Assembly (NCBI GenBank): GCA_030038215.1
Contig: JASHPI010000100.1
Span: 1-52,496 of the forward strand
Direction: 5' to 3'
Length of the DNA: 52,496 nt
Source: Vulcanimicrobiota bacterium
GTDB lineage: Bacteria; Vulcanimicrobiota; Vulcanimicrobiia; Vulcanimicrobiales; Vulcanimicrobiaceae
Within the stretch, counting starts at the first letter, position 1; each line of letters opens with the position of its first letter. The notes under the pieces are model-generated. The model had not been told where the DNA came from. It ran no database searches and worked only from the letters and a program-made list of their open reading frames with translations. Of this stretch, positions 5,254-35,931 are shown piece by piece. A program made the translations under genes and the position numbers.

Positions 5254-6708
5254 CTACCGTCCCTTCGACCCAGGCGTCAGCGACTCCGCGAGCATCGCTG
5301 CGGCCTGCGCGAGGCTCTCGTCGCTGCCGGCGCTGAATCCAAGGAGAAGACCGCGACAGTCGTCTCGCTGAAGGCAGAGGAGCGAAATCGGCAGCACGCG
5401 ATGCCCTTGCGGCAGGGAATTTGCGGCGCGAACGTCGTCAAACTCGCGTGGGCCGCGGATCGCGACGTGCAGACCCGTTTGCGCGGGACCGATGCGCAAG
5501 CTCGGCGGCAGCTTGCGCGAAAGCACGTCGATCAGGATCCGCCGGCGGCGCTGGTAAATCGCCGTCATGCGGCGCACGTGCCGGCTAAAGTGACCGAGTG
5601 CAATGAAGTCGGCGATCGTTTTCTGCAGGTGCGCGGATGCGCCCAGGCTGGTAGCAGCGCGAGCAAAGCGAAACGTCGGCGCGAGATGTCGTGGAACGAC
5701 GACGTAGCCCGAACGCAAACCGGGCGCCAGCGTCTTACTGAGCGTCCCGACATAGATCACTCGCTCGTCGCGATCCAGGCTTTGCAACGCCGGCAGAGGA
5801 TGTGCGTCGAACTCGCTGTCGTAATCGTCTTCGACAACGTATGCGTCGTTGTCCCGAGCCCAGTTTAAGAGCTCGGTGCGGCGGTGCAGCGGCAGCGCGC
5901 CCCCGAGCGGGAACTGATGCGAGGGCGTCACGTAGGCGAGCGACGCTTTGCGTGGCAGCTCTCCGGTGCACATTCCGCCGGCGTCGACCCGAACTCCATG
6001 GAGAACGAGTCCATGTGCCGCGAAGATCGTGCTCGCGAGCTGATAGCACGGATCCTCGATTGCAACGGTGCCGCCGGATTGACGTAAAGCGAAGGCGATG
6101 AGGTGCAGTCCCGCCTGCGTCCCTTCGACGACGATGATCTGCTCGGGATCGGCAACGACGCCGCGGAATTGCGCGATATGCCGCGAGATCGCTTCGCGCA
6201 GTTCGCGCAATCCGGAGCCTTCGCCGTAATCGAGATGCTGGTCGGGAAGTGCGAGATTCGCGCGCTCTATACGGCGCCACGTTCGCAGCGGAAATGCGCC
6301 GAGATCCGGCGCGCCGACGCGCAGCGGTCCGAACGACGATCCGACGGCGTCGAGACGTTCCTGAATTGCCGCAAGCTTCTGGGCGACCGCGGGCGGCTCG
6401 CGCGGCGGTGCGGCGGGGCGGCGGCGGGCGCGATGAAGCGTCGCGGTGACGAACGTGCCGGCGCCGACCCGCGCCTCGAGGTAACCCTCGGCGACGAGCT
6501 GCTCGTAAGCCGAAGTGACAGTATTGCGGGAGAGGTCGAGCCGCCTCGCGAGCTCACGGCTGGGAAAGAGCCGCGAAGCGGCCGGGAAGAACCCGCTCTC
6601 GATCGCCGCTCGCAGGCGCCGGACCAGTTGCGCCTCCAACGGCTCGCGAGCCGCGCGGTCCGGAAAGAGCGGCTCCAGGTCGATTGGCTCTTTCATTTTT
6701 TCTTGCAT
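5254..6708 (-). CDS. MocR/PdxR-type regulator (GntR winged-helix fused to a fold-type I aminotransferase-like domain)
   Basis: The N-terminal GntR HTH is LPSRELARRLDLSRNTVTSAYEQLVAEGYLEARVGAGTFV. The C-terminal aminotransferase-like domain has the PLP-lysine context YVGTLSKTLAPGLRSGYVV. The start is uncertain: ATG 6708, ATG 6696 or TTG 6780. Confidence 0.9.
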   Translation of the reverse strand: MQEKMKEPIDLEPLFPDRAAREPLEAQLVRRLRAAIESGFFPAASRLFPSRELARRLDLSRNTVTSAYEQLVAEGYLEARVGAGTFVTATLHRARRRPAAPPREPPAVAQKLAAIQERLDAVGSSFGPLRVGAPDLGAFPLRTWRRIERANLALPDQHLDYGEGSGLRELREAISRHIAQFRGVVADPEQIIVVEGTQAGLHLIAFALRQSGGTVAIEDPCYQLASTIFAAHGLVLHGVRVDAGGMCTGELPRKASLAYVTPSHQFPLGGALPLHRRTELLNWARDNDAYVVEDDYDSEFDAHPLPALQSLDRDERVIYVGTLSKTLAPGLRSGYVVVPRHLAPTFRFARAATSLGASAHLQKTIADFIALGHFSRHVRRMTAIYQRRRRILIDVLSRKLPPSLRIGPAQTGLHVAIRGPREFDDVRAANSLPQGHRVLPISLLCLQRDDCRGLLLGFSAGSDESLAQAAAMLAESLTPGSKGR

Positions 6709-6895
6709 TGGCGCGATACGAGGGTCCAAATCCTTCCGCAGAATCAGACCATGAAAAGCACGATCACCGGACGACGGCAAGGCCTGAAAAAACGTTCTTG
6801 ATCGTTGATGACGCGAAGGCTCGGTGACCGCTCGTACCTAAGTCTCCGGCGCGCTCCCCGCATCGGCGGTGCGCTCTTTGACACAGGAGGCTACG

Positions 6896-7778
6896 ATGCC
6901 AGAGAAAGCGCCTACTGGGCCGGTCCCACCTTCCCCGACACCCACACCCATCGCCGCGACGGTCACCGCAGGTTTGCTCAACGTCCCGACACCCTCGAGC
7001 GGAGGGAACGTCGTCGGCGTTTGGGGCTACGAGGGCTCGCTCGTCAACTTGCCGGAAGAGACATCCACACCCCCATTCACCTGCGGCGTTTTAGGCCAGG
7101 GCGAACACGGGGGCGTTGTCGGCACGAGCGCACCCGGGTCGGGAGTGCACGGCGTCAACGGGGCCGGAACCGGAACGAAGCCGGTCTACGGATGCGGCGT
7201 TTGGGGCGAGTCCGACAACGGTTACGGCGTTTACGGTGCGAGCAAGACGGCCAGCGGCGTGTATGGGACGAGCCCGGCGGGTCATTTTGCGGGTGAGTTC
7301 GAGGGAGACGTGCAGGTGAGCGGCAGCGTCAGTGTCGGGAGCAACGTATCCGTTGCCGGCGACGTCATCCTCACGGGCAGCGACTGCGCCGAGCAGTTTG
7401 ATACCGCGGGAAAGCGCCGGATCGAGCCTGGGAGCGTCGTCGTCATCGACGGCGAGGGCACTTTGTGCGAAAGTCACCAAGCCTATGACAAGAAGGTCGC
7501 GGGCGTCGTCTGGCGCCGGATGTTACAAGCCTGGTATTCTGCTTGGGGCAACCGGCGAAAAGCGCACGTCAATCGCGCTGGCCGGAAAAGCTTATTGCAA
7601 GGTGGACGCGCAGTATGGAGCGATCTCCGTGGGCGATCTCCTCACGACGTCTCCGACGGCCGGCCATGCGATGAAGGCTGTCGATCCTGACAGAGCATTC
7701 GGAGCGGTTATAGGAAAGGCGCTGAGCGCTCTGGACCGCGAGCAAGGGCTGATTCCGATCCTGATCGCCTTGCAGTAG
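6896..7778 (+). pseudogene. Glycine-rich GVxGxS-repeat protein with a conserved C-terminal domain; the reading frame is broken near 7505-7511
   Basis: ATG 6896 has a perfect AGGAGG 5 nt upstream. The frame of ORF 6869..7690 reads well up to ...YDKKVAGVV, then turns into Arg/Trp-rich junk. The +1 frame (ORF 7332..7778) resumes at that point with SGAGCYKPGILLGATGEKRTSIALAGKAYCKVDAQYGAISVGDLLTTSPTAGHAMKAVDPDRAFGAVIGKALSAL...IPILIALQ. One extra nucleotide (or two missing) would explain the break. Confidence 0.55.
7001..7280 (+). repeat. About seven degenerate Gly-rich peptide repeats (GVWGYEGS / GVVGTSAPGS / GVHGVNGAG / GVWGESDNGY / GVYGASKTAS / GVYGTSPAGH) inside gene 6896-7778
   Basis: Read directly from the translation. 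The periodicity is roughly 10 residues with a G-V-x-G core. Confidence 0.5.
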
Positions 7779-7779
7779 C

Positions 7780-9294
7780 ATGAGCAACATCTCTGAGCTT
7801 CTGAACAACGTCGCCGAGGCAAATAACGGAGCGATCACGCTCGCCGGGAACGTCATCGGTTCGCTCGCCGACATCTCCGGGGCGCTTAACCTCGTCGTCG
7901 GCGCCATCGATCTCTTTCTCAATGACGACCAAGAAATTCTCACCCAGCTGAACAACATTCAAACGCAAATCCAAGAGGGCTTCGCGGCCGTGGCCGCGGA
8001 AGCCCGAGCTGCGAACATTCTCAACCGGCTAAACAATCTCGACCCGGCCCTCGCGCAAGCGCAATCCGTCCTCGATAATCTCAAGGCCGACTTGAGCCAA
8101 ACGCCACCGGTCGACGAAGAGTATCGTCTCCAGCAGATCCAACTCTGCCTCGACTCGGTCGAACAACTCAATCAAGACGATAAGTGGCTGACCAACTTTG
8201 CCGACGAGATTTACTACGGCTCACCGTGGGGCCCCGACGCAGCTGCCGATCAGACCGACTGGTGGGCGCGCCTCATGGCGCCAACACCCAACGCCGACGG
8301 AACGGTCTTCAGTTGCCGCTACGTTCTTCCCGATTTCCTTCGCGTGCTCTATGACTTCATGCTGGTCGCGTCAGCGTTCGAAGCCGACTACACGACGCTC
8401 TACCAAGCTCCGCTGCAAAATTACGCAGCACGCTTGCAGACGGCTTATAACACGTCAAAGCAAGGCCTTGTGACGATCAAGAAACCCACGCCTAGCCAGC
8501 TGGGCATTTTGAGCTTCAGCCAGGACGTTCCGTGGTACGAAAGTTACGGCACATCGGCGATGTGGGGGCCGGACGAACCACCGGGGCCCGGAGAGTTTCC
8601 GTATATAGACCAGCTATATTCGGGCGGAAGCATTCCACCGGATCAAGATGTTTATCAATGGCATGGGCCTTTCCAAGCCGTGACGTCGGTGCTCGATTGG
8701 CAGGGCAACGTTGCTCAAGGTCCGGTACCGATGCGATGCGTGCCATTAGAAGCCGCTGGCTACGTCGATCCGGAGTACGGCTACAATCAAGAGTATGGCG
8801 TCGTGCACACGTACACCGGCTATAGCAACATCTCGAACTACCCGCCGATTCCGTTGCCTGCGGCAAATCCGAACGTCTTCTGGCCACAGTTCTCGGCATC
8901 GTTAGACCTCGCGCTTCAAAGGAATTACAAGCAGGCTTACTCCGGCATCGGATTGGACACGGTTTGGACGACCATCAACGTCCTCAACCGTTTAACGGGT
9001 CAGCCGCTTCTGGGGACCTACGATCCCAATGTGGTTTGGACGCTGCGCGAGCTCAATGGAATTCTGGGATCGGCATTTCCTCCGCAGCCGCCATCGGGGA
9101 TCTCGGCGCAAGCCGTGATCGCGGGCCTTACGACGGTCGCAACCAATATGGACGCGGGCATAAGCGGCGTGAAGCCGGCACCGCCGCTGACCCGTCCGCT
9201 ATCGCTCCGAGACGCGCTTAACAACGCACTGAAGGCAGTAACCTTCACCTGCCGGCCGGGCGGCACCGTCCCTCCCCCGGTCAATCTCGAATAG
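7780..9294 (+). CDS. Hypothetical 504-aa protein with no signal peptide; helical Asn/Gln/Leu-rich N-terminus and a Trp/Tyr/Pro-rich C-terminal half
   Basis: The ATG lies 1 nt after the stop of the preceding gene. The ORF is long and clean despite lower G+C (45-55% on spot-counted lines). I could not recognise any family signature. Confidence 0.7.
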   Translation: MSNISELLNNVAEANNGAITLAGNVIGSLADISGALNLVVGAIDLFLNDDQEILTQLNNIQTQIQEGFAAVAAEARAANILNRLNNLDPALAQAQSVLDNLKADLSQTPPVDEEYRLQQIQLCLDSVEQLNQDDKWLTNFADEIYYGSPWGPDAAADQTDWWARLMAPTPNADGTVFSCRYVLPDFLRVLYDFMLVASAFEADYTTLYQAPLQNYAARLQTAYNTSKQGLVTIKKPTPSQLGILSFSQDVPWYESYGTSAMWGPDEPPGPGEFPYIDQLYSGGSIPPDQDVYQWHGPFQAVTSVLDWQGNVAQGPVPMRCVPLEAAGYVDPEYGYNQEYGVVHTYTGYSNISNYPPIPLPAANPNVFWPQFSASLDLALQRNYKQAYSGIGLDTVWTTINVLNRLTGQPLLGTYDPNVVWTLRELNGILGSAFPPQPPSGISAQAVIAGLTTVATNMDAGISGVKPAPPLTRPLSLRDALNNALKAVTFTCRPGGTVPPPVNLE

Positions 9295-9651
9295 GAATTC
9301 TTCGCTCGAGTACACCGTTAGATTACTGGCGCGAAGATGGCTGGTAGGCGCAAGCTAGAGTCCTAAACTGAACTGAGGACGTGATGGAGCAATGGCAAAG
9401 CCTAGAGATCACGAGGCCGAGCATTTGCAGTCGCCGCCAACACGAACGTGAGAACGCGGGCGACGACCCGTTGCGTCACACCGAGATCATCGCGCGCCCG
9501 CCGTCCTATTGACGCTTGCGGCTCTGTTTTTGGCGCTTGCGGCGATCAAACGCGGCGCCGCCGCTCACCATCGCCTTCGGTCCGAGTACCTTCGGTCGCC
9601 GGCCTGTTTGGGTAGGAGCAAGCGCGCGGCTGGCTGAAGCCACCCTGCCTG

Positions 9652-12468
9652 GTGACGCCCCAGCGTATGGCCGGCTTGACCGTCGGCGCGTTCGCTATTT
9701 GCGCACTCGCCGGCGCGACCGTGCGCGCCGTTCACTATGGGTTCGGCGTCAACGCGCAAAATATAGTGGTCGTACGTCCGCCCCCTATGGCACCATCCGC
9801 GCGAGGTATGGATCCACGGATCGGCATCACGGGCTACGTTACGCGTCCGCATTGCACGCTCACCCTGTATGCGGACGAAGCACCGATCGCGAGTGCAACG
9901 CCTCCGCCGCTCCCCGCGCGCTTTACCTTTAGCTTGCCGCAATCGCTCTGGGAGACGCAAAACCAGATACTCGCTCGGTGTCCGTTGCCAAGCTTCCCGT
10001 TCGTTAGCCGCGCGCTCGTCGCGGTTCCGGTTCCCAAGAATCTCGATGTCTCCGGGAACGCGCTCTTCCGCGGCGTGGCGCGAGCCGTACACTTTTGGAT
10101 TAGCCCGGGGCGCACGAACTTTTATGGGGTCCTCGAACTAAGCGGCGACGAACCTCGCCTTACGAGCGCGCTCGAACTGTCGTCGCTCGATCAACTTGCG
10201 CGCGAAGCGTTTAACATCAACTTCAACTTTCACCCACTGTATGATGCGCTGCGCAGTCCGACTCCGCAACTGTATGAGAGCAACCATCACCTTTTTTTGA
10301 CGCTTCGCGGCGAGCTCTATCCGTACGCGACCGTTGCCGGTAGCTCGAGAATCAACATCGTCGTCTCGCCGATCGAGCTCGTGCGCGCGGCGTGCGTCAG
10401 GCACGACGCATTTGCTACGGGTTTCGAGTGTAACTCGGACCCGCCCGCAAACGAGAACAGCAAGGTCGTCGTGCGCCTACGCGGCCTCAACGCCACGTCA
10501 TTTCCGAGCGATACGCTCGGGATCTCGCGGTCGCTTGGGCCGCCCAACCATCTGGACCGTGACGGCAGCTACGTTTGGTATACTTCGGTGGCTGCTCCAA
10601 CGCCTCAAAGCGTACAGATCGACGTACACGGTTACGCCCTCTCGTCGCCGGGTGAAGTTCACCACTTTCTAGCGGCGGAAGCCAAGGGCGACACGCCGTT
10701 ACTGCAGGTGATTGTTGACGCGGTCCACGCCCTGATCGGCGTTGTAATTGTTGCAATTCTACTCGTCTACGCCGGCTTCTGGAAACACGATGTCGAGCAC
10801 GAGCGCTATTGCGGCATCATCACTGCGGCCGCGCTGGCAAGCGTCCTGGTTGACGCAGGGTCTTGGTTAGCCAGGTACGGGTTTTACATTTTCGTAAATG
10901 GGAGAGGCCTCCAGCCGGCAGAGCAGCGCAATGTCAGCTTCTTATTGGGTTATCTGCGACCCACGTTCGTCGCCGCCGAGTTGGCGGCGCTGATCGCCAT
11001 CGTGGCGATCGTTTGGGCGTTGCGGCACTGGAAAGTAACGAGCAACGTTGGTTATTTCTTGGGCACGGCACTTGCAATCCTCACCATTTCGTTCTTAGGC
11101 TCACTGTATAGTGCAGTCGAGCTGCACCAGCACTACCTCTCCCTAAGTAACCCCAACAATCTTAACTCCTCGCTGCTCACCATTGCTTCCAACGCGATCC
11201 TTGCGGTCGTAATGTTCGTGCTGCTGATGGTATCATTCAGGCCGGAGCTGGCCATGCAGCTCTTCGGCGTAGCCCGCTCTTTGCGACCATGGGTGTATTG
11301 GCTCGTGGTCTCTCTCATGACTCTGTCGGCAGTGGTCGTCGCGCCAAGTTCGGCGTACTTTGCTGGGAACTACTCGGCACCGGAATTCCGTATCGACATG
11401 GTCGTGATGGAGGCCGGCAACTACATCTCAGGGTTGGCCGTTGTGGTGCCGATCTTGTGGTTTCTTTGCTCTCGCAACCGCGCTATCGTCAAAACGGCGA
11501 AGCATAAGGGGCACCTAGCTTTGCTGTTCGCCGTCCTAGTTGTGCTGACGGGCTACGCATACTTAGGGTTCCCGGTCACGTTGCTGCTGACGTTTGCCGC
11601 GATCTATTGGATCGCCTTGCGGCCGAACAGAGATTACGAGGCAATATCGGCAAACCTGAATAGCGGCCGCACGCGAGAGGACTTGCTGGCGGAAGCTTAT
11701 GACATCGACATGTGCGCGGCGGCTCGCCAGACGAAGGAGCGATTCCTTTCCCAATTCGTTAGCGGAAACTCGACCTGGGATGATTACAAAAAGCGCGAAG
11801 CCGAGCTCGATGCATTTATCAGCAGCAGGGAGACGAGCTCGCAAGACGGCACGCGCGCGCATGCGACGGAGCTTGCCTTCGGAATGGGGCTTGAAAACGA
11901 CCTGGTGTCAAACGCTCGCTTCACCGCGCTGATCTCACTCGCGCCGGCTTCGATCCTGACCGCGTTGGCGGCTCAAGCCGTCATTGGCAACGCTTCTGCG
12001 GCTCACGCGCCGTTCTTTGTGGCTTTTGCGCAAGTCGTTTCTTCGGTCATCGGATATATGGCCGCAGGCCTTGGATTTGGTCTGGTGTATCCGTACGTGC
12101 GAGGGAAGGTCGGCACGATGAAGGCCCTCTGGATAATCCTGGCGCTGGCGCTCTCGATTCTGCCGTACGAGTTCATGTCGGGTTCGCGGCCGGATTATTT
12201 GGCACAGATCTTGCGATGGCTGATCTTTTTCGGCGGCCTAGGAGTGACGACGGATGTGCTGAGCGCGGTTCGTTGGAAGCGGCGCCTCAACGTTCGCGAC
12301 CTCATCGGCATCGTGGGCGTCGGTCATTTTGCCGCAGTCGGGGCGGTCGCCGTAACGATCGCGACGTCGCTCTTGACGTCGGAGTCGCGCGATCTGCTCC
12401 AAGTCGCAATCCACCACGTGGTTCCGGCCCAATATGCTCTCCCGACGCCGCAGGACCCAGGTGAATAG
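9652..12468 (+). CDS. Large polytopic membrane protein of unknown function (N-terminal ~350-aa extracytoplasmic-looking domain, more than 12 hydrophobic helices, one charged ~100-aa loop)
   Basis: MTPQRMAGLTVGAFAICALAGATV is a signal/anchor sequence; ATG 9667 is an alternative start. Many 20-25 residue hydrophobic stretches begin at LLQVIVDAVHALIGVVIVAILLVYAGFW. A soluble loop reads RPNRDYEAISANLNSGRTREDLLAEAYDIDMCAAARQTKERF...KKREAELDAFISSRE. The stop overlaps the next gene. Confidence 0.8.
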   Translation: MTPQRMAGLTVGAFAICALAGATVRAVHYGFGVNAQNIVVVRPPPMAPSARGMDPRIGITGYVTRPHCTLTLYADEAPIASATPPPLPARFTFSLPQSLWETQNQILARCPLPSFPFVSRALVAVPVPKNLDVSGNALFRGVARAVHFWISPGRTNFYGVLELSGDEPRLTSALELSSLDQLAREAFNINFNFHPLYDALRSPTPQLYESNHHLFLTLRGELYPYATVAGSSRINIVVSPIELVRAACVRHDAFATGFECNSDPPANENSKVVVRLRGLNATSFPSDTLGISRSLGPPNHLDRDGSYVWYTSVAAPTPQSVQIDVHGYALSSPGEVHHFLAAEAKGDTPLLQVIVDAVHALIGVVIVAILLVYAGFWKHDVEHERYCGIITAAALASVLVDAGSWLARYGFYIFVNGRGLQPAEQRNVSFLLGYLRPTFVAAELAALIAIVAIVWALRHWKVTSNVGYFLGTALAILTISFLGSLYSAVELHQHYLSLSNPNNLNSSLLTIASNAILAVVMFVLLMVSFRPELAMQLFGVARSLRPWVYWLVVSLMTLSAVVVAPSSAYFAGNYSAPEFRIDMVVMEAGNYISGLAVVVPILWFLCSRNRAIVKTAKHKGHLALLFAVLVVLTGYAYLGFPVTLLLTFAAIYWIALRPNRDYEAISANLNSGRTREDLLAEAYDIDMCAAARQTKERFLSQFVSGNSTWDDYKKREAELDAFISSRETSSQDGTRAHATELAFGMGLENDLVSNARFTALISLAPASILTALAAQAVIGNASAAHAPFFVAFAQVVSSVIGYMAAGLGFGLVYPYVRGKVGTMKALWIILALALSILPYEFMSGSRPDYLAQILRWLIFFGGLGVTTDVLSAVRWKRRLNVRDLIGIVGVGHFAAVGAVAVTIATSLLTSESRDLLQVAIHHVVPAQYALPTPQDPGE

Positions 12469-15256
12469 ACGGTCGCCGAATCGTAGCAAAGCCCCGGTCG
12501 TTAGCGGAACGGTGACCTTTGCCTTTACCGACATCGAACAGAGCACGCGGCGCTGGGAACGCAGCTTCTCGGCCATGGAGAGCGCCGTCCGTCGTCACGA
12601 TTCGTTGGTCTATGCAGCGATCGTCGATCGTGGAGGGTACGTTTTTAAGATGGTCGGCGACGCATTCTGTGCGGCGTTCGCCCGTGCTGAGGACGCGATT
12701 GCCGCGATGCTCGACGTGCAGCGCCGGCTCGCCGAGGAGGACTTTTCCGAACTTGACGGTCTGCCGGTGCGTGCGGCCATCCACACCGGGACTGCGAGCG
12801 AGCGAGACGGCGATTACTTCGGACCGACCGTCAATCGCGTCGCGCGGCTGCTGGCAATCGGGCATGGCGGTCAGATCCTCGTCTCGAGTGCGACGGCGGC
12901 ACTCGTCCAGGGTAACCTTCCGCCAAAAACGCGTTTACGCGATCTCGGCGAACACCGGCTGCGCGATCTGGCGCGGCCGGAACGTGTCTACGGCCTGAGC
13001 GCACCGGATCTGGCCGTCGACCTTCCACCACTGCGCTCGTTGAGCGCACTCGCGACCAACCTGCCGTTGCAGCTTACGTCGTTCGTCGGACGCGAAACCG
13101 AACTCCGCCAGATCGAGTCGCTCATCAAACAGCACCGGCTCGTTACGCTAATCGGTGCCGCGGGTGTCGGCAAGACGCGCACGATGCTGCAAGCTGCGGC
13201 GAATCTGCTCGACCACTGGGATGATGGCGCGTGGTTCGTCGAGCTCGCGTCGTTATCGAGCGGTGAGCACATCCCGTTGGCCGTCGCCCAGGCAATGGGG
13301 ATCACCCTCGAAGGAGACGACTCGCTGCAAAGTCTCATGCGCGCTCTAAAAGAGAAGAACGCGCTGCTCCTCTTCGACAACTGCGAGCATCTCGTCGATC
13401 CGGCGGCGCGCGCGATCGCAGCGCTGCTGTCCGGCTGTCCAAAGCTTAACGTGCTCGCGTCCAGCCGTCAGTCGCTCGAAGTCGATGGCGAGCAGCTGTA
13501 CCGGCTACCTTCGCTCGGGGTTCCGGACGAGGATGAAGCAGAGCCTTTGCAAGCCGCCGACGCGATGCAATCCGCGGCGATCCTGCTCTTTGTCGACCGT
13601 ACCTCGGCAGTCGAAAAACGATTCGCGCTGACGGATGCGAATGCATCGGAGATCGCAGAAATTTGCCGCAGGCTCGACGGCATTCCGCTCGCGATCGAGC
13701 TCGCTGCATCGCGAATGTCGATACTCAGCCTAGCTCAGCTTTCGAAGATGTTGAACGAGCGGTTCCGCCTGCTCGTGCAAAAGAAGGGCGATCGGCTGCC
13801 GCGCCAGCAGACGTTGCGCGCGCTCATCGACTGGAGCTTTGACCTGCTTACCGAGGACGAGCGCGCGGTCTTCAGACGCTTCTCCGTATTTGTCGGCGGA
13901 TGCAGGCTGGAGGCGGCGGTGGCGGCGTGCGCCGACGAAAGCATCGACGAGTGGCAGGTGTTCGAGTTGCTCTCCGGCTTAGTTGCGAAATCGCTCGTTG
14001 TCACAGAACCGCGCGATGACGAGCATCGCTATCACATGCTCAACTCCATCCGAGAATATAGTCGCGAACGCTTGCTGGAGGAGAACGAAGCCGGCGCCAT
14101 CCACGCAAAACACGGCCGCTATTACTCGGACCTTCTGCCCGCGCTCGCCCATCTGGTCGAATCACAGGACGACGCCCAGTGGCAGCAAGCGCTGACGCCC
14201 GAGCTCGCCAACCTGCGAGCGGCAGTGAGCTGGGCGATCGTCGCGCGCAACGACGCCGCAGCGGGTCTCAACCTCCTCGCACACTTCGAATGGCCGGAGC
14301 TCGTAACGACTCCGCAGGAAGCGGTCGCGTGGTTCGAAGCGGCCGTCGCGCTGATTGACGCAGCGGCAGACGACGTCATCAGGGCCCGCGTTCTTCGTCA
14401 TCTCGTTCGTTTGAAGTGGCTGGTCGGGCGCCCGATCTCCGAGCGGGTAGAGACGGCGCTAGAAGGAGTCACGGTGGCGCGCAAGTCGGCGGATCCGGAC
14501 GAAATCGCTCGCGCGCTCGCGAACCTCGGCAGTTGCTACCGCGACGCCGGTCGCTACGACGAGGCCGAGTCGACGTTTTCGCAGGCGTACCAAGCGCCGG
14601 AGCAGCTTTCAGCCATTACACTGAATCACGTCTTACGGAACTGGGCGGTAGCGAATCTCCAACGCGGGGATCTCGAAGCCGCACGCCGGCGCTTCACCGA
14701 AGTCGCTGAACGGGAACGTCCGGGAAGCGAAGCGCATGCCAGCGCGCTGCTGAATCTCGGTGAGCTCGAGTTTGCGATGGGCAACGTCGAGGCCGCGCGA
14801 GCGGCGGCGGGCAAAGCCAGAGAAACCCTTGCGCGATTGCGCGCCGCGCCGCTCGCGCTGGTTATTTGCAACCTGGCCGCCTACGCGCTGGCAGTCGACG
14901 ATCTGGCCGCCGCCCGCGACTTGCTCGGGGAGGCGCTGCGGCTGCTCAAAAAGTCGGGGGCTCGATGGATGATCGTCGCTTTGGAGCATCACGCGCTATT
15001 GGGCGTTCTCCAGGGCGATCACGAGCTCGCCGCTGCCCTGTTGGGATTTACCGAGGCCCACTACACACACAGGGGTCAACGCGAGCGCAACGAGCAGCAG
15101 GGCTACGAGCGGCTCGTCGGCCTGCTGTCGCAAATCTACGACCAGGAGGAGTTGACGCGGCGGCGGAATCAGGGGGCTCGTTTACAGGACGACCAGGCGC
15201 TGGAGCACGCTGCGGCGATTAGCCGTAGCGCAAAGCCGTTGTCGTCGCACGCATAG
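12434..15256 (+). CDS. Class III adenylate/guanylate cyclase domain fused to a STAND (NB-ARC-like) P-loop NTPase and a TPR-like repeat tail
   Basis: Cyclase motifs are FAFTDIEQST (12524), FKMVGDAFCAAF and GPTVNRVARL. The NTPase has Walker A GAAGVGKT (13154-13177), Walker B LLLFDNCEH and an NB-ARC-like GIPLAIELAA. The C-terminal ~300 aa are helical repeats rich in A/L/E/R (...NLGSCYRDAGRYDEAESTFSQAY...). GTG 12461 is an alternative start. Confidence 0.9.
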   Translation: MLSRRRRTQVNRRSPNRSKAPVVSGTVTFAFTDIEQSTRRWERSFSAMESAVRRHDSLVYAAIVDRGGYVFKMVGDAFCAAFARAEDAIAAMLDVQRRLAEEDFSELDGLPVRAAIHTGTASERDGDYFGPTVNRVARLLAIGHGGQILVSSATAALVQGNLPPKTRLRDLGEHRLRDLARPERVYGLSAPDLAVDLPPLRSLSALATNLPLQLTSFVGRETELRQIESLIKQHRLVTLIGAAGVGKTRTMLQAAANLLDHWDDGAWFVELASLSSGEHIPLAVAQAMGITLEGDDSLQSLMRALKEKNALLLFDNCEHLVDPAARAIAALLSGCPKLNVLASSRQSLEVDGEQLYRLPSLGVPDEDEAEPLQAADAMQSAAILLFVDRTSAVEKRFALTDANASEIAEICRRLDGIPLAIELAASRMSILSLAQLSKMLNERFRLLVQKKGDRLPRQQTLRALIDWSFDLLTEDERAVFRRFSVFVGGCRLEAAVAACADESIDEWQVFELLSGLVAKSLVVTEPRDDEHRYHMLNSIREYSRERLLEENEAGAIHAKHGRYYSDLLPALAHLVESQDDAQWQQALTPELANLRAAVSWAIVARNDAAAGLNLLAHFEWPELVTTPQEAVAWFEAAVALIDAAADDVIRARVLRHLVRLKWLVGRPISERVETALEGVTVARKSADPDEIARALANLGSCYRDAGRYDEAESTFSQAYQAPEQLSAITLNHVLRNWAVANLQRGDLEAARRRFTEVAERERPGSEAHASALLNLGELEFAMGNVEAARAAAGKARETLARLRAAPLALVICNLAAYALAVDDLAAARDLLGEALRLLKKSGARWMIVALEHHALLGVLQGDHELAAALLGFTEAHYTHRGQRERNEQQGYERLVGLLSQIYDQEELTRRRNQGARLQDDQALEHAAAISRSAKPLSSHA

Positions 15257-15267
15257 GAGTACCTTGA

Positions 15268-15450
15268 ATGTCCATTGCTACGAATCAAGCGTCCAACCAT
15301 CTCGACGCGCACGCACAGACGATTGACGAGCTCCACCGCAAACTAGCCGCCACACCGGGCGTCGATCAGGAACGTCTTCAGACGGCCGTGACGACCTACA
15401 AGGCGGCCTTTGTTCAGTTCCGCGACGACGCGCTCGGGTGCATGAACTAG
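15268..15450 (+). CDS. Small hypothetical protein (60 aa, predicted helical)
   Basis: GGAG lies about 8 nt upstream of the ATG. The ORF starts 11 nt after the cyclase-STAND stop on the same strand. No family was recognised. Confidence 0.4.
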   Translation: MSIATNQASNHLDAHAQTIDELHRKLAATPGVDQERLQTAVTTYKAAFVQFRDDALGCMN

Positions 15451-15454
15451 CGCG

Positions 15455-16975
15455 CTAACGCGGCCCCGCGCCGAGAGCCGCCGCGAGCGCGGTGCCTTCG
15501 GGTGTGCCAAGGCCCGTACACGGATCCCATCCTTGAGCGGCTTGGTACGGGCCGTTGCTTCCCGCCGTGACGTCGCTGAAGAACCGGCTGCCCGGCGCGT
15601 AAAGAATCGGTGCAAAGAATCCGACCGGAACACCGAGTCGTTGGTTGATGCGCGCGGTCAATGCGGACCATACCGGCGCGACCGCGCTCGTTCCGCCCAT
15701 CGCTAGTTCGACGCCGTCGACAACGACGTAGTATCCGGGCGATTGCTGCGCGGCAACGTCGGGTACGCCGCGCCCGGCGGATACGCCGTAGCCCGCCGCG
15801 GAGGAACGCGCGACATCCTGCCACGGCGGAACGGCGCCCCTGGCGCTGAAGCCGCCGCCGCTGCGCTCCCACGCCTGTTCGTCCGAGCCGGTGCCGGCGA
15901 TGACGGTCGCCCCGCAACCTATGACGAAGGGGCTCGAAGCCGGTGCCAGCACGTGAGGTTTCCCGTCGTAACTCAGCTCGGCCCCGTTATCTCCCGACGA
16001 ACAAAAGACGCTCATTCCCACGAGCGCCGCGGCGACGAAGAGCTCGTCAAGAATGTCCAGCGCAACGGGGGTCCATACATGTTCGGGCCAGCCGTAGCTA
16101 ATCGACAACACCGACGGCATGTATTCCTCGTCGAAGACGGCCTCGCGAACGGCGTCGAGGCACCCCCGCTCGTCATCGGGCGCCTCGTAGACGACCAGGC
16201 GAGCCGCAGGCGCGAGCGATGCAATGATTTGCACGTCGAGCGCTGCCTCGAGATCGTGCGTCGTGGCGACCTCGTGCGCGACGGCCGCGTCGTCGACTCG
16301 CTTGAGGATCGGAAGGGCCGAGGCGATTCCTTGTGCGCGCATGCATTGATTGAAGTCATTGGGCTTGAATTCGCCCCGCAGCTGCACGGCTGCGATCGTT
16401 TGGCCGGCACCGTCAGCCGAAGGAAACTGATAGCGTGCCGCAACATCGCTCGCAAGCAGCGGCTGCGCATGCCGTTGCAGCCCGCCGAGCTTGCGCGAAC
16501 GCGGCCACTGATGGAGGCCAAAGATCCCGCGGACGACGGCCGCGATCTCCGGCGGGACGCGCAGCGCATCCGAGCGATGCCGGAAGCGTTGTTTGATCTC
16601 GTCTTCAAAAATCGCGACCGTCGCGCCGAACGCGGAAATTAGTCCCTCGAGCGGGCCCTCGAGTGTCACCGACCTCCAATGCGATCCTGCGACCTTGATT
16701 CCGAAGCCGTCGCAATAACGGCGCAATAGCTCGACGTCAGCCGGATCTGCTCCGGTTTGCTCGGCCAACGTTTTTCGATCCACGTACGTGCGTTGCGACG
16801 GCGGCGTCGAGCCGAGCGTCAGCGCGCGTTCTCGATCGAGGTCGCCGCCACGGCGTGGTTTCAGCCACGCGGTCAAGAGCACGTCGGAGGCTGCCGCCAG
16901 CGGCTCGACTTGGCGGCTTCCCGGCCACGTCGTGCGCTGCGTTCCTGGTATAGGGACGCGTTGTTCGGCGGTCAC
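15455..16975 (-). CDS. Peptidase S53 (sedolisin/kumamolisin family) with an N-terminal pro-domain
   Basis: The N-terminus resembles the pro-kumamolisin activation domain. Catalytic signatures are EAALDVQ (Glu/Asp), SSGDNGA (oxyanion Asp) and GGTSAVAPVWSAL (Ser). The start is GTG. Confidence 0.9.
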   Translation of the reverse strand: MTAEQRVPIPGTQRTTWPGSRQVEPLAAASDVLLTAWLKPRRGGDLDRERALTLGSTPPSQRTYVDRKTLAEQTGADPADVELLRRYCDGFGIKVAGSHWRSVTLEGPLEGLISAFGATVAIFEDEIKQRFRHRSDALRVPPEIAAVVRGIFGLHQWPRSRKLGGLQRHAQPLLASDVAARYQFPSADGAGQTIAAVQLRGEFKPNDFNQCMRAQGIASALPILKRVDDAAVAHEVATTHDLEAALDVQIIASLAPAARLVVYEAPDDERGCLDAVREAVFDEEYMPSVLSISYGWPEHVWTPVALDILDELFVAAALVGMSVFCSSGDNGAELSYDGKPHVLAPASSPFVIGCGATVIAGTGSDEQAWERSGGGFSARGAVPPWQDVARSSAAGYGVSAGRGVPDVAAQQSPGYYVVVDGVELAMGGTSAVAPVWSALTARINQRLGVPVGFFAPILYAPGSRFFSDVTAGSNGPYQAAQGWDPCTGLGTPEGTALAAALGAGPR

Positions 16976-17028
16976 TCGCTTTCACAGCGCTTCGCCGTAG
17001 CGAACGCAAAGGTCCTCGGGCGTCTGAC

Positions 17029-18957
17029 ATGCAAGAAGGCGCCATGTCCCTTTTCCGGCGGCTTTTGCCATGGCCGGTCTTCGTCGCATTTACAGTCGCG
17101 TCTATAATGGCAGGCGCCTTTGCGCCGGCGGCCGGCTCGTCGAGTCCGGCTGCAGCGCACGCCTGCGGCGCGCCCATCGCAGGACACGAGATCGAACCGC
17201 CCCCCGACGTACCGATGTGGGACGCGCCACTCGATGCGCACGGTTTGCACGAGCTCATCCTTGCCGTGCACAAAGACGGCGACCGCTATTGCTACCGCTA
17301 CACGTGGAATGGCGCCGTGCAGACGGTTGCTCCGACGATCCGTGTGAAGCCCGGCGAACGCTTTGCAATCCGCATCGTCAACGATATTGTGGAGCAATCG
17401 AAGGGCGAGACGGCGCCGTCGACGGCGCTGCCGCCGTGCAAGCCGATGATGATGCCGGACGCGCCTGTCCATCATTGGGTGGGCTATCTCAACCACACCA
17501 TCGACGATCGCCGCATGCCGATCGCCGGGCTCGACGTCAATCTGCACCTGCACGGCTTCGAAGGGCCGGCGTCGATGGAGGACATCTTCCTCTCGTCGCT
17601 CAGCACGCCGATGCACGCATGCGAATACGATATTACGATTCCCGCGACTCAGCCTTCTGGAACCTACGTTTATCATCCGCACGCGCACGGAGGGTCGGAT
17701 ATCGAGGTCGCGGGCGGGCTGGACGGCGCGTGGATCGTGGAGCCTAAAACGCCGGAGCTGCCGCTTTCCGCGCAGCACGTCCTGGTCGTCCGCTATCGGA
17801 TTCCGTTCGAGCTTGACAACAAATTCCAACCCGACGATGGAGGCGCGATCGTGCGGCTGGCCGAGCAGCACGAAGCGACTCGTGATCCGGCTTCACCGGT
17901 GCCGTACGATCCCTTCAACCCGCCGCCGTGGCCGGTGACCTATCCCATGCACGGCGGGGGCGTTTCGCTCGATCCGTCCGGTTGCGAGGGGCTCGGCTCC
18001 GAGGTAGCGGTTCAGGTCGACGGCACCGACGTGCCGGCACTGATGAGCGTTCCTGCAGGCCAAACGCAGTGGTTACGCATCGTGAACGGCACCTCCGATA
18101 CGGCCGAGCTCTTCGCGCTGCGCGACAGCAACGGGAATACGCAGCCCTTGCAGGTCGCGAGTCTCGATGGCGTTCCGATCTCCGGCGACATGCAGCGTCC
18201 GCTCGCGCGCTATCTCTCGTTTAGCCAGCTCATGCTCACGCCGATGGGGCGTGCCGGCGTCCTGCTCGCCGTACCGGCTGGGGCAACGTACACGCTCTCA
18301 ATCGAGCATTACTGCAGTGGCGCCGATGCCTTCTTCGAGATGCACCACGACTTAGTTCGCATTCAGGCTGTCGCAGGAGCCGGTGCCGGCACGGCCTTCG
18401 CTTCACACCCGGAGGCCGCGTCGCAGACGCCGGCTGCAAAGCTGGTCGCCTTCGCCGGGGACCACCCTAAGCTGGTTCGGCGGCGCGCCATTGCGTTTAC
18501 CGAGTATGCCTTCCCGAAGTCCGGAAAGACGAAAGCTCATCAGGCGTACTATATCACCGACATCACCGACAGGAACTTTCACGAGCATCCGTTTTGGCCA
18601 TCGTATCGCGACGGCGGAACCGTTCCGCTGCAGGCGGACATCGTCGTGAAGCAGGGCAGCATCGAGGAGTGGTCTCTGATTAACACGACGATGGAGGCGC
18701 ACGGATTCCATATCCATCAGATGGCATTCGTGCAAGAACGCAGCCCGATGGGCGTGCCCGTAACGCTGGACACCGCCTTCGTCCCGGTCGGCAAACTCTT
18801 GGCCAATCCGCACGATCCGGAGTATCCGCTCGTTAAACCGTCCATTACGAAGGTGCTATTGGACTTCCGGCACGTTCCCAAAGGCACGTTCGTCTTCCAC
18901 TGCCACATGCTCTTTCACGAGGATCACGGCATGATGGGCGTGATACGCGTTGTGTAA
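17029..18957 (+). CDS. Multicopper oxidase (laccase/CueO-like), secreted
   Basis: Four copper-binding motifs are present: HLHGFEG, YVYHPHAHG, HGFHIHQ and FHCHMLFHEDHGMM. The signal peptide is MSLFRRLLPWPVFVAFTVASIMAGAFA. ATG 17044, with GAAGG upstream, is a likely alternative start. Confidence 0.9.
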   Translation: MQEGAMSLFRRLLPWPVFVAFTVASIMAGAFAPAAGSSSPAAAHACGAPIAGHEIEPPPDVPMWDAPLDAHGLHELILAVHKDGDRYCYRYTWNGAVQTVAPTIRVKPGERFAIRIVNDIVEQSKGETAPSTALPPCKPMMMPDAPVHHWVGYLNHTIDDRRMPIAGLDVNLHLHGFEGPASMEDIFLSSLSTPMHACEYDITIPATQPSGTYVYHPHAHGGSDIEVAGGLDGAWIVEPKTPELPLSAQHVLVVRYRIPFELDNKFQPDDGGAIVRLAEQHEATRDPASPVPYDPFNPPPWPVTYPMHGGGVSLDPSGCEGLGSEVAVQVDGTDVPALMSVPAGQTQWLRIVNGTSDTAELFALRDSNGNTQPLQVASLDGVPISGDMQRPLARYLSFSQLMLTPMGRAGVLLAVPAGATYTLSIEHYCSGADAFFEMHHDLVRIQAVAGAGAGTAFASHPEAASQTPAAKLVAFAGDHPKLVRRRAIAFTEYAFPKSGKTKAHQAYYITDITDRNFHEHPFWPSYRDGGTVPLQADIVVKQGSIEEWSLINTTMEAHGFHIHQMAFVQERSPMGVPVTLDTAFVPVGKLLANPHDPEYPLVKPSITKVLLDFRHVPKGTFVFHCHMLFHEDHGMMGVIRVV

Positions 18958-20173
18958 CGTGAGATCCGGGATCTTCGCGGCTGCCGCGCTGATCGGCATA
19001 GCCGGCTGTTCAGGATCCGAGTCGGGTCCGGCGGTGGTCCCGGCGCAGGTCGCGTTCGCCGGCCACGCGAGAACCGCATTACGCTCGTGCCGGCAACCGG
19101 CTCCTCGCGCTCCCGACCCCGACGCGGTGCACGGGCTGATGGTCTGGTTGGACAGCGTCGACGAAACGAAGAACGATCCCGCCATTCTGAAATACGTAGC
19201 TGCAGATCCGAATCTGTGCGGCGCGAGCATCGTCGTGCTGTGGTCGGAAATCGATAAAGGACCGAAGGCCAACCCGCAATACGATTTCGATCCGATCGAA
19301 CGAGCGATCGAGCCATGGATCGCCGCTCGGAGGATCGTCAACCTGCTTCTCGTCGGCGTCGACGAAGTCGGCACGAGCGACCGCGCGACGCCTGCGTGGG
19401 TGCTCGGGCAGACCGGTCCGAATCACGTCGATCTCGTGCCGTGCTCGGATCCAGGCGGCGGCGTGGTCGTGCCGCCGACGCCGGTGTATTGGGAGCTCGG
19501 TTACCTCACGCCGTGGCACAAGTTCGTGGCTGCGGTCATCCGGCGCTACGGAGCCAACCCGAACGTCGGTTACATGCGCTTTGGCTTGGGCGCCGGCGCC
19601 GAGGACTTTCCGCAGCACGGCGCCGACGGCAACTGCTTTCCCGTCTGGCACAAAAAGTACGGCCTGTCGGCGAGGTTCTGGGCGCAGTACAGCGCGCGAC
19701 TGACGGGGTTCATTGCCGCCGCCGCGCGCCGCGACGATTCAAGCGCGCAGCAAATGGTCGCGCTCAATTACTTCTCCGACCCCGAGCGACCGTTCAACGT
19801 TCAAAATGAGGTAGCCAGCGTTGCTGCCGCGGACGGCGTCGGCTTCGGCACTGAGAATCTGGGGTCGGGCCAATATGGAACCGTCGTCGAAAAATGTACG
19901 TCGCAAGAGTATTGGTGCGAGGCATTCATGGCACACGCCGGCCAGGTGCCGCTTCAGTTTCAGCCCATCAACTTCACGCTCCAACCGGGAACACACATCC
20001 TTCCGCTGCCGAAGCTCCTGGCGTATGCGTTGTACAACGACGCGCAAGTATTCGAAATCTATCCCCAGGACTGGTTGACGGCCGACGACCCTCACTACCG
20101 GACCTACGCCGCGCACCATGCGGCCTGGGAGCGAGCCTTCACGAAGGCGGCCGCCCGCCTTGGCGGAACGTAG
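18950..20173 (+). CDS. Lipoprotein, possibly a TIM-barrel glycoside-hydrolase-like protein
   Basis: The lipobox is AAALIGIAGCSGS. The segment VLWSEIDKGPKANPQYDFDPIERAIEPWIAARRIVNLLL resembles the W..IEP..G.YDF motif of clan GH-A enzymes. The function call is weak. The start overlaps the MCO stop. Confidence 0.6.
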   Translation: MCNVRSGIFAAAALIGIAGCSGSESGPAVVPAQVAFAGHARTALRSCRQPAPRAPDPDAVHGLMVWLDSVDETKNDPAILKYVAADPNLCGASIVVLWSEIDKGPKANPQYDFDPIERAIEPWIAARRIVNLLLVGVDEVGTSDRATPAWVLGQTGPNHVDLVPCSDPGGGVVVPPTPVYWELGYLTPWHKFVAAVIRRYGANPNVGYMRFGLGAGAEDFPQHGADGNCFPVWHKKYGLSARFWAQYSARLTGFIAAAARRDDSSAQQMVALNYFSDPERPFNVQNEVASVAAADGVGFGTENLGSGQYGTVVEKCTSQEYWCEAFMAHAGQVPLQFQPINFTLQPGTHILPLPKLLAYALYNDAQVFEIYPQDWLTADDPHYRTYAAHHAAWERAFTKAAARLGGT

Positions 20174-35598: not shown

Positions 35599-35931
35599 TT
35601 ACTGCTTGCCGTATGCGCTGACTAGGTACTGTACCAGCGTTGGAACCGCGTTGGCCGGAATCTGCGCGCCATAGGCGCGCTGCATTTTCGTAACCTCCGC
35701 GGTCCACTGCGCCGACGTCAGCGCAGGCTGCGTGGCGATGTACCCGGCGGAGTGGCAGGTGAGACAGTAGCGGCGAGCGGTTTCGACGCCGCTCCCCGGC
35801 TTAAAGGCCGTTGCGGCGTCACTCGGCAGCGCAATGGTCGCCGTCCCTTCGGGCGGCGTTGCGGTTGCCGACAGCGCGACGCCGGCCGCGACGAGCGCGA
35901 GCACAGGGAGCACCAGCAAAACGTGTTTCAT
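35599..35931 (-). CDS. Monohaem cytochrome c, SorB-like subunit of sulfite dehydrogenase
   Basis: It has a signal peptide and a CLTCHS haem motif. It is 110 aa long and its start has an ATGA overlap with the stop of the upstream Mo-enzyme gene. Confidence 0.85.
   Translation of the reverse strand: MKHVLLVLPVLALVAAGVALSATATPPEGTATIALPSDAATAFKPGSGVETARRYCLTCHSAGYIATQPALTSAQWTAEVTKMQRAYGAQIPANAVPTLVQYLVSAYGKQ

Follow-up and report, generated by a model that had tools for sequence, protein, structure and literature searches.

The window analysed here, a 52,496-nt stretch of DNA from a Vulcanimicrobiota bacterium (contig JASHPI010000100.1), carries on its forward strand three consecutive open reading frames (ORFs), and all three were confirmed at their coordinates (9652–12468, 12434–15256 and 15268–15450). 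A preliminary description, made from the sequence alone, had joined them into one module comprising a large polytopic membrane protein, a cyclase–STAND–TPR protein and a 60-aa ORF, referred to below as orf60. The ORFs, the overlap, the motifs and the 11-nt gap that it reported were all found in place; a sedolisin gene at 15455–16975 had been left out of it. The features are as follows.

6800–12460, no strand: variable segment between conserved flanks, delimited by tblastx against loci L014 and L016.
9652–12468, + strand: polytopic membrane protein (938 aa), a putative remote relative of DUF6185 and apparently a lineage-specific neighbour of the cyclase gene.
12461–12468, + strand: 8-nt gene overlap, GTGAATAG, read from the sequence, with the SD-like sequence GCAGGA ahead of it at 12450–12455.
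12461–15256 (or from 12434), + strand: predicted class III adenylyl cyclase–STAND/NB-ARC-like NTPase–winged helix–TPR protein, assigned from Pfam, a PDB match and motifs.
15268–15450, + strand: orf60, a conserved 60-aa protein, recognised from 34 database clusters, its conserved tail and an SD sequence.
15455–16975, − strand: predicted sedolisin (S53) serine-carboxyl peptidase with a pro-kumamolisin activation domain, assigned from Pfam Pro-kuma_activ and catalytic motifs.

The stop codon of the membrane-protein gene (TAG, 12466–12468) lies inside the cyclase gene, and the overlap is 35 nt if the latter starts at ATG 12434 (940 aa) or 8 nt if it starts at GTG 12461 (931 aa). GTG 12461 is most likely the start, because the N-terminus is then as long as in the orthologues (13 residues before VSGTVTF), the SD-like GCAGGA lies upstream and database entry P0012 (931 aa) uses this start. 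In orthologous loci, homology to the window starts only at approximately 12485–12500, thereby indicating that the overlap junction is specific to the lineage of the window. The start of orf60 is 11 nt past the cyclase stop codon, which is overlapped by the sequence AGGAG, and orf60 is probably co-transcribed with the cyclase gene. The stop codons of orf60 and the sedolisin gene are 4 nt apart; these two genes are convergent and hence not co-transcribed. A promoter and terminator scan of 9200–17100 gave a result no better than chance, and no Rfam match was obtained anywhere in the window.

Residues 25–173 of the cyclase protein matched Guanylate_cyc (PF00211; 38.1 bits, cutoff 21.9), residues 217–432 matched AAA_22/NB-ARC (AAA_22, 33.3 bits, cutoff 27; NB-ARC, 23.0 bits, cutoff 23.5) and TPR matches lay at approximately 680–800 (TPR_12, 54.1 bits), while a winged helix, HTH_77 (PF25872), is precomputed for P0012. 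The best PDB match of the cyclase head was Ma1120 (4wp3, E = 1.1e-16). Cyclase motifs were located at 12524–12547 (FTDIEQST), 12647–12667 (KMVGDAF) and 12809–12850 (GDYFGPTVNRVARL), and NTPase motifs at 13154–13177 (Walker A, GAAGVGKT), 13364–13390 (Walker B, LLLFDNCEH) and 13679–13708 (GIPLAIELAA); depending on the motif, they were kept in 85–118 of the 120 top homologues (cyclase motifs, 85–114 of 120). Numbered from ATG 12434, the key cyclase residues are FTD33IE, K72MVGD76AF and GD127YFGPTVN134RVAR138, which we take to supply the two metal-binding Asp residues, the substrate Lys/Asp pair of the ATP type and the transition-state Asn/Arg. The features that define a STAND protein were all present, from the Walker A, Walker B and GxP motifs to the winged helix and the repeat sensor at the C-terminus. 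These data indicate that the head is an intact class III cyclase on a STAND NTPase with a TPR tail, as had been proposed from the motifs; its activity is a prediction, and its substrate specificity is read from the motifs. The protein belongs to a very large paralogous expansion, with more than 7,632 homologues at E ≤ 1e-100, whose members are annotated as ordinary cyclases.

Mycobacterial proteins of the Rv0386, Rv1358 and Rv2488c type have the same layout, in which a class III cyclase at the N-terminus precedes a P-loop STAND-type ATPase and TPR-like repeats; these AC–ATPase–TPR/LuxR proteins likewise form multiple paralogues, most of them uncharacterised (bioRxiv 10.1101/2024.03.06.583649; PMC2447327). 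The window protein differs from them in lacking a C-terminal LuxR/GerE HTH: neither this nor any other C-terminal HTH was matched in Pfam, and the C-terminal 250 residues consist of TPR-like helices. It also has the canonical Lys/Asp substrate-defining pair, whereas a Gln/Asn pair has been reported for Rv0386, and a 60-aa protein and a sedolisin invariably go with it. STAND regulators of the MalT/AfsR type pair an NB-ARC or MalT NOD with a TPR/SUPR sensor. With these regulators, for which inducer-dependent and ATP-dependent multimerisation is described (PMC4381067), the window protein shares the NOD, the winged helix (HTH_77) and a C-terminal helical-repeat sensor, and the same multimerisation logic would be expected of it. 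It differs in acting through an enzymatic head, the cyclase, where those regulators have a DNA-binding domain, and it may respond to a small protein instead of a metabolite.

A candidate for such a small protein is orf60. Its 34 database clusters encode proteins of 59–61 aa, and wherever source names were present these were Eremiobacterota taxa (Vulcanimicrobiaceae and Baltobacteraceae); the family was found only in Eremiobacterota. Identity to orthologues was 95, 85, 81 and 46%, most substitutions fell on the third base of a codon and the SD sequence was kept; orf60 is a real gene and under purifying selection. In the alignment, the C-terminus F-x-DDALGCMN-COOH is invariant, including its Cys, and the helical body, predicted to form a two-helix hairpin, is likewise well conserved. 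The N-terminus is hydrophilic and contains no signal peptide. Searches of PADLOC and NCBIfam with orf60 gave no match, those of Pfam gave only sub-threshold ones (HBM, 27.0 bits versus a cutoff of 29.8, and Bestrophin-like), and comparison with the cyclase, the sedolisin and the membrane protein revealed no meaningful similarity. A role for orf60 as the copper-binding partner of a neighbouring multicopper oxidase was considered and dropped, because the oxidase adjoins orf60 only in the closest relatives.

The product of the convergent gene resembles kumamolisin/sedolisin (MEROPS S53) in having a pro-kumamolisin activation domain (Pro-kuma_activ, 36.4 bits, cutoff 23.5) and the Ser-Glu-Asp catalytic motifs, namely ExxLD (EAALDVQ), SGD (SSGDNGA) and GTS (GGTSAVAP). 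It differs from these enzymes in that no N-terminal signal peptide was found, and in that its gene stands tail-to-tail with orf60 and the STAND–TPR gene; the protease is predicted to be cytoplasmic. To our knowledge, no bacterial sedolisin with a regulatory role has been described.

In a set of 40 loci with orf60, the sedolisin was counted where at least 300 nt were available downstream, and the STAND–TPR gene where the upstream sequence sufficed. A convergent sedolisin gene, the most constant neighbour of orf60, was present in 34 of 35 such loci, and a STAND–TPR match in 34 of 36. orf60 follows the cyclase gene by 11–24 nt in each of the four closest orthologue groups (L014–L018), is also located 3′ of the cyclase in the more distant L003 orthologue and came immediately after the cyclase gene in all orthologues examined, which upholds the earlier assignment of the 60-aa ORF to the cyclase. 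In seven loci (L026, L027, L031, L033, L036, L039 and L040) a 2TM-GAF head stands in place of the cyclase head and the association with orf60 and the sedolisin remains, indicating that the two are tied to the STAND–TPR part of the protein. The surrounding genes are ordinary metabolic genes of the housekeeping type, and no mobile-element or defence-island genes were observed among the scanned ORFs. As a whole, this gene order makes it fairly probable that the sensor, orf60 and the sedolisin constitute a conserved, Eremiobacterota-specific signalling neighbourhood from which the membrane gene is separate and lineage-variable. A link of a cyclase–STAND protein to a 60-aa protein and a sedolisin was not found in the literature searched, and searches on Eremiobacterota cyclases and on sedolisin/STAND links returned nothing relevant.

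If the neighbourhood is functional, it could work as follows. In the resting state the STAND NTPase would hold the sensor as an inactive monomer. A change in the ligand state of the TPR domain would then lead to ATP-dependent oligomerisation, which would join the cyclase heads. Since the active sites of class III cyclases are built across the dimer interface, joining the heads would switch on cAMP synthesis. The likeliest ligand or brake of the TPR domain would be orf60, which would dock through its conserved C-terminal tail. Proteolysis by the sedolisin would control how much orf60 is present, a step suggested only by the conserved gene order. A more specific proposal, which we regard as possible but doubtful, is that the sensor (with a cyclase or a 2TM-GAF head), orf60 and the cytoplasmic sedolisin form a previously undescribed regulated-proteolysis switch, and that, in the lineage of the window, a DUF6185-like protein has been captured into the same transcript. 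An acid-activated S53 protease would then destroy or trim orf60 on the TPR sensor, leading to STAND oligomerisation and cAMP, and the captured DUF6185-like envelope protein could tie a function of the envelope to the switch in that lineage. Closest to the truth is probably ordinary cAMP signalling of the Rv0386 type, the caveat already attached to the preliminary description, with a newly noticed accessory pair of a small protein and a protease. The cyclase–ATPase–TPR class is widespread, including Rv0386 of Mycobacterium tuberculosis, and its activating signals are still sought; a functional neighbourhood would provide one clade of the class with a testable candidate ligand (orf60) and a candidate upstream regulator (the sedolisin), and would be the first intracellular regulatory role for bacterial sedolisins.

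The same three genes could alternatively be read as a peptide cassette of the RRNPP/RiPP type, in which the sedolisin frees a C-terminal peptide from orf60 as precursor and the TPR domain of the upstream receptor senses it. The position of the small ORF directly 3′ of a TPR receptor gene, the adjoining protease (34 of 35 loci), and the C-terminus as the most conserved part of orf60, with its invariant Cys, are in keeping with this, as is a weak match of the receptor to an FxSxx-COOH-system TPR protein (NF040586), that system being a precedent for a STAND–TPR protein paired with a peptide bearing a C-terminal motif. However, this match was confined to the NB-ARC part and reached 48.7 bits against a cutoff of 300, and the orf60 tail is DDALGCMN rather than FxSxx-COOH. 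Unlike in RRNPP cassettes, orf60 has no signal sequence, nor has the sedolisin a signal peptide, and the receptor output is a cyclase or GAF head, not an HTH or phosphatase. The neighbourhood has no conserved exporter or maturase gene, no radical-SAM maturase gene was present around the closest cyclase orthologues, and the conserved helical body of orf60 is more in line with a folded protein than with a leader peptide. We therefore consider a peptide cassette unlikely.

The remaining gene of the proposed module encodes a polytopic protein, as judged from a hydropathy scan and an AF2 model (pLDDT 82, pTM 0.83). The model was built from an alignment including remote relatives, which were needed because the 11 close homologues alone gave an unusable model (pLDDT 45). 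It comprises an N-terminal TM anchor, a β-rich Ig-like ectodomain (approximately residues 39–330), about 14 TM helices, a helical insert (approximately 657–750) and a conserved disordered C-terminal tail (921–938). A search of 5.8 billion proteins gave just 11 close homologues, and the protein had no match of its own in Pfam (E ≤ 0.01), NCBIfam or PADLOC. A profile search yielded 105 remote relatives that have only the C-terminal membrane half in common with it, and 31 of the 47 scanned relatives matched DUF6185 (PF19683; best E = 1.7e-17), with a core motif kept across them (GFxFGYFxPYLRGxxGxxK...LG..FD). The sequence comparisons thus place the window protein as a remote DUF6185 relative whose membership is transitive: the likeness lies in the polytopic C-terminal half, whereas the Ig-like ectodomain is confined to an 11-member Eremiobacterota subfamily that includes the window protein. 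With the full AF2 model as query, Foldseek returned nothing at E ≤ 1e-3 from PDB or BFVD; Ig folds were aligned with the ectodomain at E > 0.01 only, and the membrane domain had no match at all. A profile search of PDB sequences gave only noise (OATP1B1, E of about 0.1). A literature search for DUF6185 returned nothing relevant and no paper mentioning it, and we know of no function on record for this family.

The preliminary description had cast this protein as the dedicated partner of the cyclase, with the logic of Pycsar or CBASS. In this reading, the membrane protein, the cyclase and orf60 would form a single sensor/effector module in which either the membrane protein is the target of a cyclic nucleotide made by the STAND-gated cyclase, or a signal from the envelope reaches the cyclase through the membrane protein. 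In favour of this, the 8-nt overlap implies that the two genes are co-transcribed in the window organism and may be translationally coupled, the same two orthologues are direct neighbours in L003/L052 (divergent, 125 nt apart), and the conserved, disordered C-terminal tail of the membrane protein could be a docking motif. When the 11 independent membrane-protein loci were compared, however, the cyclase adjoined the membrane gene only in the window and in the L003/L052 lineage. The other nine had no cyclase in their flanks, either within 10 kb (L009, L010 and L012) or in the flanks available (L001, L002/L013, L004, L005, L008 and L011). The preliminary description had itself put forward such a comparison of gene order as a check, and the outcome goes against a dedicated partnership. 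Conversely, the membrane gene was absent from 37 of the 40 orf60/STAND loci, including those of the closest cyclase orthologues (83–86% identity), in which both flanks are as in the window. By tblastx, L014 and L016 matched the window at 5746–6738 (GntR–aminotransferase) and again from approximately 12485 onward. Between these flanks both carry MarR and metallo-β-lactamase genes, with further ORFs in L014; the window segment 6800–12460 is instead occupied by a Gly-rich ORF of 273 aa, an ORF of 504 aa that has no Pfam match, and the membrane gene. The GC content of this segment falls to 0.58–0.60, compared with 0.62–0.65 in the flanks; no direct or inverted repeats bounding it were found and there is thus no evidence for a mobile element.

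Remote relatives of the membrane protein occur in unrelated gene contexts. No consistent partner was found elsewhere (glyoxalase/MM-CoA mutase, bestrophin-like, HTH and unannotated upstream ORFs were checked), and the neighbours of its close homologues contained no BTAD domain. L003 and the window share a wider regional synteny, including a PDZ-Asp protease gene, so that common ancestry of the neighbourhood suffices to explain the adjacency in both. In agreement with the preliminary description, neither a Pfam scan nor the AF2 model revealed a cNMP-binding or other nucleotide-sensing domain in the membrane protein. The likeness to Pycsar and CBASS is limited to the adjacency of a cyclase gene and a membrane-protein gene in the window organism: the cyclase matches class III models (PF00211) and structures rather than a CD-NTase (Pol-β fold), scans of the membrane protein, orf60 and the neighbours covered revealed no cNMP-binding domain, the pairing is not conserved, and PADLOC gave no Pycsar or CBASS model match. 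A single module of all three genes is accordingly quite improbable, and of the earlier proposal the orf60–cyclase part stands while the membrane-protein part does not. The gene-order comparison indicates that the membrane gene is a lineage-specific neighbour of the cyclase, not a dedicated partner or cyclic-nucleotide effector. It is probably co-transcribed with the cyclase in the window organism, and a weak or facultative functional link is possible, given the overlap with the cyclase start and the adjacency in two lineages whose proteins are only about 50% identical.

It is very improbable that the locus serves anti-phage defence or conflict in the manner of Avs/NLR proteins, with a phage protein recognised by the TPR domain and the cyclase as an effector head making a toxic or signalling nucleotide. 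It has the effector–STAND–repeat layout of Avs/AVAST and bNACHT proteins, its head can be either a cyclase or a 2TM-GAF unit, a kind of exchange known from diversifying conflict systems, and there is a weak PADLOC match to mad8 (E = 7.7e-4, 17 bits). However, this and PDC-S02 (E = 7e-3) were the sole PADLOC matches, and no defence model matched any gene convincingly. The locus is chromosomal, syntenic and vertically conserved across Eremiobacterota between housekeeping-type flanks, and the scanned ORFs included no mobile-element or defence-island genes. Its cyclase or GAF heads differ from the nuclease, protease or TIR heads of the defence proteins, GAF is a sensor domain and not a killing effector, and the family is a very large paralogous expansion of annotated ordinary cyclases.

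A dedicated membrane partner would have been the more striking result, although the data do not bear it out. For the DUF6185-like membrane family, which is without a solved structural relative, a confident AF2 model is now available.

The three ORFs recognized in the preliminary description were all present in the window sequence exactly as it had them, and each motif that it quoted was re-located at its position. Together with the neighboring protease gene, the locus comprises the following features:

9652-12468, +, membrane gene (938 aa), ending in the stop codon TAG at 12466-12468
12461-15256, +, adenylyl cyclase-STAND-TPR gene (cyclase), starting at GTG, or at ATG 12434
15268-15450, +, 60-aa ORF (orf60)
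15455-16975, -, sedolisin gene, with a pro-kumamolisin activation domain (Pfam) and intact catalytic motifs ExxLD, SGD and GTS

The cyclase gene overlaps the membrane gene by 35 nt if translation starts at ATG 12434, or by 8 nt (GTGAATAG) if it starts at GTG 12461. GTG 12461 is the favored start, because the N-terminal length then equals that of the orthologs, an SD-like GCAGGA precedes it, and database entry P0012 uses the same codon. The start of orf60 lies 11 nt past the cyclase stop codon, which is overlapped by an AGGAG sequence.

Pfam analysis of the cyclase protein identified Guanylate_cyc (residues 25-173), AAA_22/NB-ARC (217-432) and several TPR families, but no LuxR HTH; the architecture is thus similar to that of Rv0386, but without its DNA-binding tail. 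Among solved structures, the head domain is most closely related to the mycobacterial cyclase Ma1120. The window protein has the full set of canonical class III residues, with roles assigned from what is established for the class (two metal-binding Asp, the substrate Lys/Asp and the transition-state Asn/Arg), and an active, ATP-specific cyclase is therefore the reasonable reading of the sequence. These motifs are kept in most of the best 120 matches. Homologs are very numerous, with more than 7,632 proteins at E ≤ 1e-100; among the matches listed, named sources are mostly Eremiobacterota taxa, and many label the homologs “predicted ATPase/class 3 adenylate cyclase”. The protein belongs to a known, abundant and poorly characterized class. 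A stand-alone 120-aa ORF at L004:189-551(-), 2.3 kb upstream of a membrane-protein homolog, shares 35% identity over 76 aa with the extreme C-terminal tail of the cyclase protein (residues 847-921), and could represent either a remnant of this tail domain or a separate copy of it.

On comparative sequence grounds, orf60 is a genuine gene. Database searching recovered 34 clusters of 59-61 aa, several on the same contigs as top cyclase matches; identity to orthologs (95, 85, 81 and 46%) keeps pace with the value for the cyclase or is higher, substitutions are concentrated at third codon positions, and the SD sequence is conserved. The C-terminus F-x-DDALGCMN, called invariant, has rare variants (DDALGCVGF, DDALACIGF and DDALSCMN), all of which retain the Cys. 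At the loci of the closest cyclase orthologs, P0015, P0016 and P0019 (86, 83 and 74% identity), orf60 was found 11-24 nt downstream, followed by a convergent sedolisin gene in every case, and the upstream genes were MarR and metallo-beta-lactamase, or others, with the membrane gene absent. A metagenome scan for the orf60 family yielded 35 loci, 34 of them confirmed by tblastn. Counts were taken over all 40 orf60-carrying loci with a flank minimum of 300 nt: a convergent sedolisin gene occurred in 34 of the 35 loci with at least 300 nt downstream, usually at a spacing of 0-30 nt, and a STAND-TPR match lay within the locus in 34 of the 36 for which this much upstream sequence was available. Apart from the window, the membrane gene was present only in L003/L052, which represent one other lineage.

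In eight of the orf60 loci (L026, L027, L028, L031, L033, L036, L039 and L040), a 2TM-GAF head replaces the cyclase on the STAND-TPR protein, and the orf60-sedolisin pair is retained. The genes with two TM segments and a GAF-like head, which take three different orientations relative to orf60, are:

L026:3934-6990
L027:3875-6832 (-)
L036:5648-8503
L039:3658-6525
also in L031, L033 and L040

GAF-type Pfam domains (PF13185/PF01590) were detected in the database proteins P0082, P0102 and P0131, and the source name of P0082 is GAF domain-containing protein. The persistence of the pair beside this head indicates that the constant unit is STAND-TPR, orf60 and sedolisin, and thus that orf60 and sedolisin are associated with the STAND-TPR body and not with the cyclase itself. 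To the best of our literature searches, orf60, with its DDALGCMN-COOH tail, and sedolisin are new as a conserved accessory pair, which is confined to Eremiobacterota.

The active sites of class III cyclases require dimerization, and C-terminal peptides are typical ligands of TPR domains. The small helical protein encoded by orf60 could be a TPR ligand or brake, as gene order suggests, its conserved C-terminal tail serving as the docking peptide, and the adjacent sedolisin would control the orf60 protein. STAND proteins are activated by ligand- and ATP-dependent multimerization, with MalT as the paradigm (PMC4381067). STAND-driven clustering would thus be a natural on-switch for cAMP synthesis. 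We infer this mechanism as a whole, from the clustering to the placement of orf60 on the TPR domain and its control by the protease. Peptide signaling or a RiPP would also fit the arrangement of a receptor gene, a small ORF and a protease gene, together with the conserved orf60 C-terminus, but we consider this unlikely because signal peptides are lacking, as are an exporter and a maturase. Sedolisin itself has no N-terminal signal peptide, and the same N-terminus is conserved in an ortholog.

The membrane protein had no matches in Pfam, NCBIfam or PADLOC, matched no known transporter or enzyme family, and, as had been noted before, contains no cNMP-binding domain. Only 11 close homologs were found among 5.8 billion clusters, and the two with source names are both named Candidatus Cybelea. 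Searching 1.8 billion representatives with a profile added 105 remote relatives, which have the C-terminal membrane half alone in common; 31 of the 47 scanned matched Pfam DUF6185. The shared core is GFxFGYFxPYLRGxxGxxK...LG..FD, in which K824 and G864 are invariant and D868 nearly so. AlphaFold2 on a deeper alignment gave a confident model (pLDDT 82, pTM 0.83) with the following parts:

N-terminus, one TM helix
residues about 39-330, beta-rich ectodomain
about 14 TM helices
residues about 657-750, helical insert
residues 921-938 (window 12412-12465), conserved but disordered C-terminal tail (pLDDT<50)

Foldseek of this model against PDB and BFVD returned nothing at E ≤ 1e-3, Ig folds against the ectodomain being the sole matches. 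Despite its predicted disorder, the tail HHVVPAQYALPTPQ(D/E)P hardly varies among the 10 full-length subfamily members, and could serve as a short linear motif for docking.

The consistent adjacency of membrane and cyclase-STAND genes envisaged in the preliminary description was not borne out. Across 10 further independent membrane-gene loci (L001, L009, L002/L013, L003, L004, L005-7, L008, L010, L011 and L012), tblastn with the cyclase matched only L003, where a true ortholog (51% identity) is divergent from the membrane gene; none was present in L009, L010 or L012 with 10 kb of flank per side. Other neighbors were inconsistent (glyoxalase and methylmalonyl-CoA mutase; bestrophin-like and periplasmic binding protein; HTH genes). 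The two closest remote relatives, P0166 (L054) and P0167 (L055), lie no more than 3 kb from BTAD-domain (SARP-type) genes (L054:2744-3505(-) and L055:1065-1952(-)), with a cyclase at neither locus. P0166 also lies beside phage-sheath, gp19-tube and baseplate-like genes, which resemble a contractile injection system, and a GerE HTH gene precedes P0167.

By tblastx, both flanks of L014 and L016 match the window, at the GntR-aminotransferase (5746-6738) and from the cyclase through the multicopper oxidase (about 12485 to 19649). Between these flanks, both loci carry other sequence in place of 6.8-12.46 kb, and homology restarts only at about 12485-12500; therefore, the membrane gene lies in a variable segment and its overlapping junction with the cyclase is lineage-specific. 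This segment also holds two ORFs without Pfam match, 6869-7690(+) and 7780-9294(+), with a homolog in none of the fetched loci. One ORF of the segment is Gly-rich, with repeated GV(W/Y)G units that match DNA repeats at 7082-7221; the 504-aa protein of the segment shows a weak pairwise likeness to orf60 (50% over 34 aa, E 7e-4). An Asp_protease_2 and PDZ protein is common to the window (26486-28285(+)) and L003 (10515-12377(-)), 15 kb and 3 kb from the membrane gene, respectively, which indicates that both loci stem from one ancestral chromosomal neighborhood. The proposed new pairing of a cyclase with a membrane partner is unsupported. That the membrane protein is the effector of the cyclase would agree with their being direct neighbors in two lineages, and overlapping in the window, but appears quite improbable, as L003 and the window are syntenic over a wider region, for which common descent is explanation enough. 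A role of the locus in defense is less probable still, given that PADLOC support is absent and the vertically conserved, housekeeping-type context is at odds with it.

A 299-aa ORF at 16972-17871(-), which is almost wholly contained, on the antisense strand, in the gene for the multicopper oxidase (17029-18957(+)), was rejected as a shadow ORF because its tblastn conservation in L016 falls inside the conserved oxidase region. The family-2 glycosyltransferase encoded at 31490-33376(+) has at its N-terminus an MshEN domain, which is a module for c-di-GMP binding, and its gene shares 4 nt with the start of the gene for a response-regulator receiver (33373-34518(+)); this may be a second-messenger-controlled polysaccharide synthase. 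Two paralogous sulfite-oxidase-like molybdopterin oxidoreductases (Oxidored_molyb and Mo-co_dimer) are encoded less than 8 kb apart at 35928-37121(-) and 43600-44817(-).
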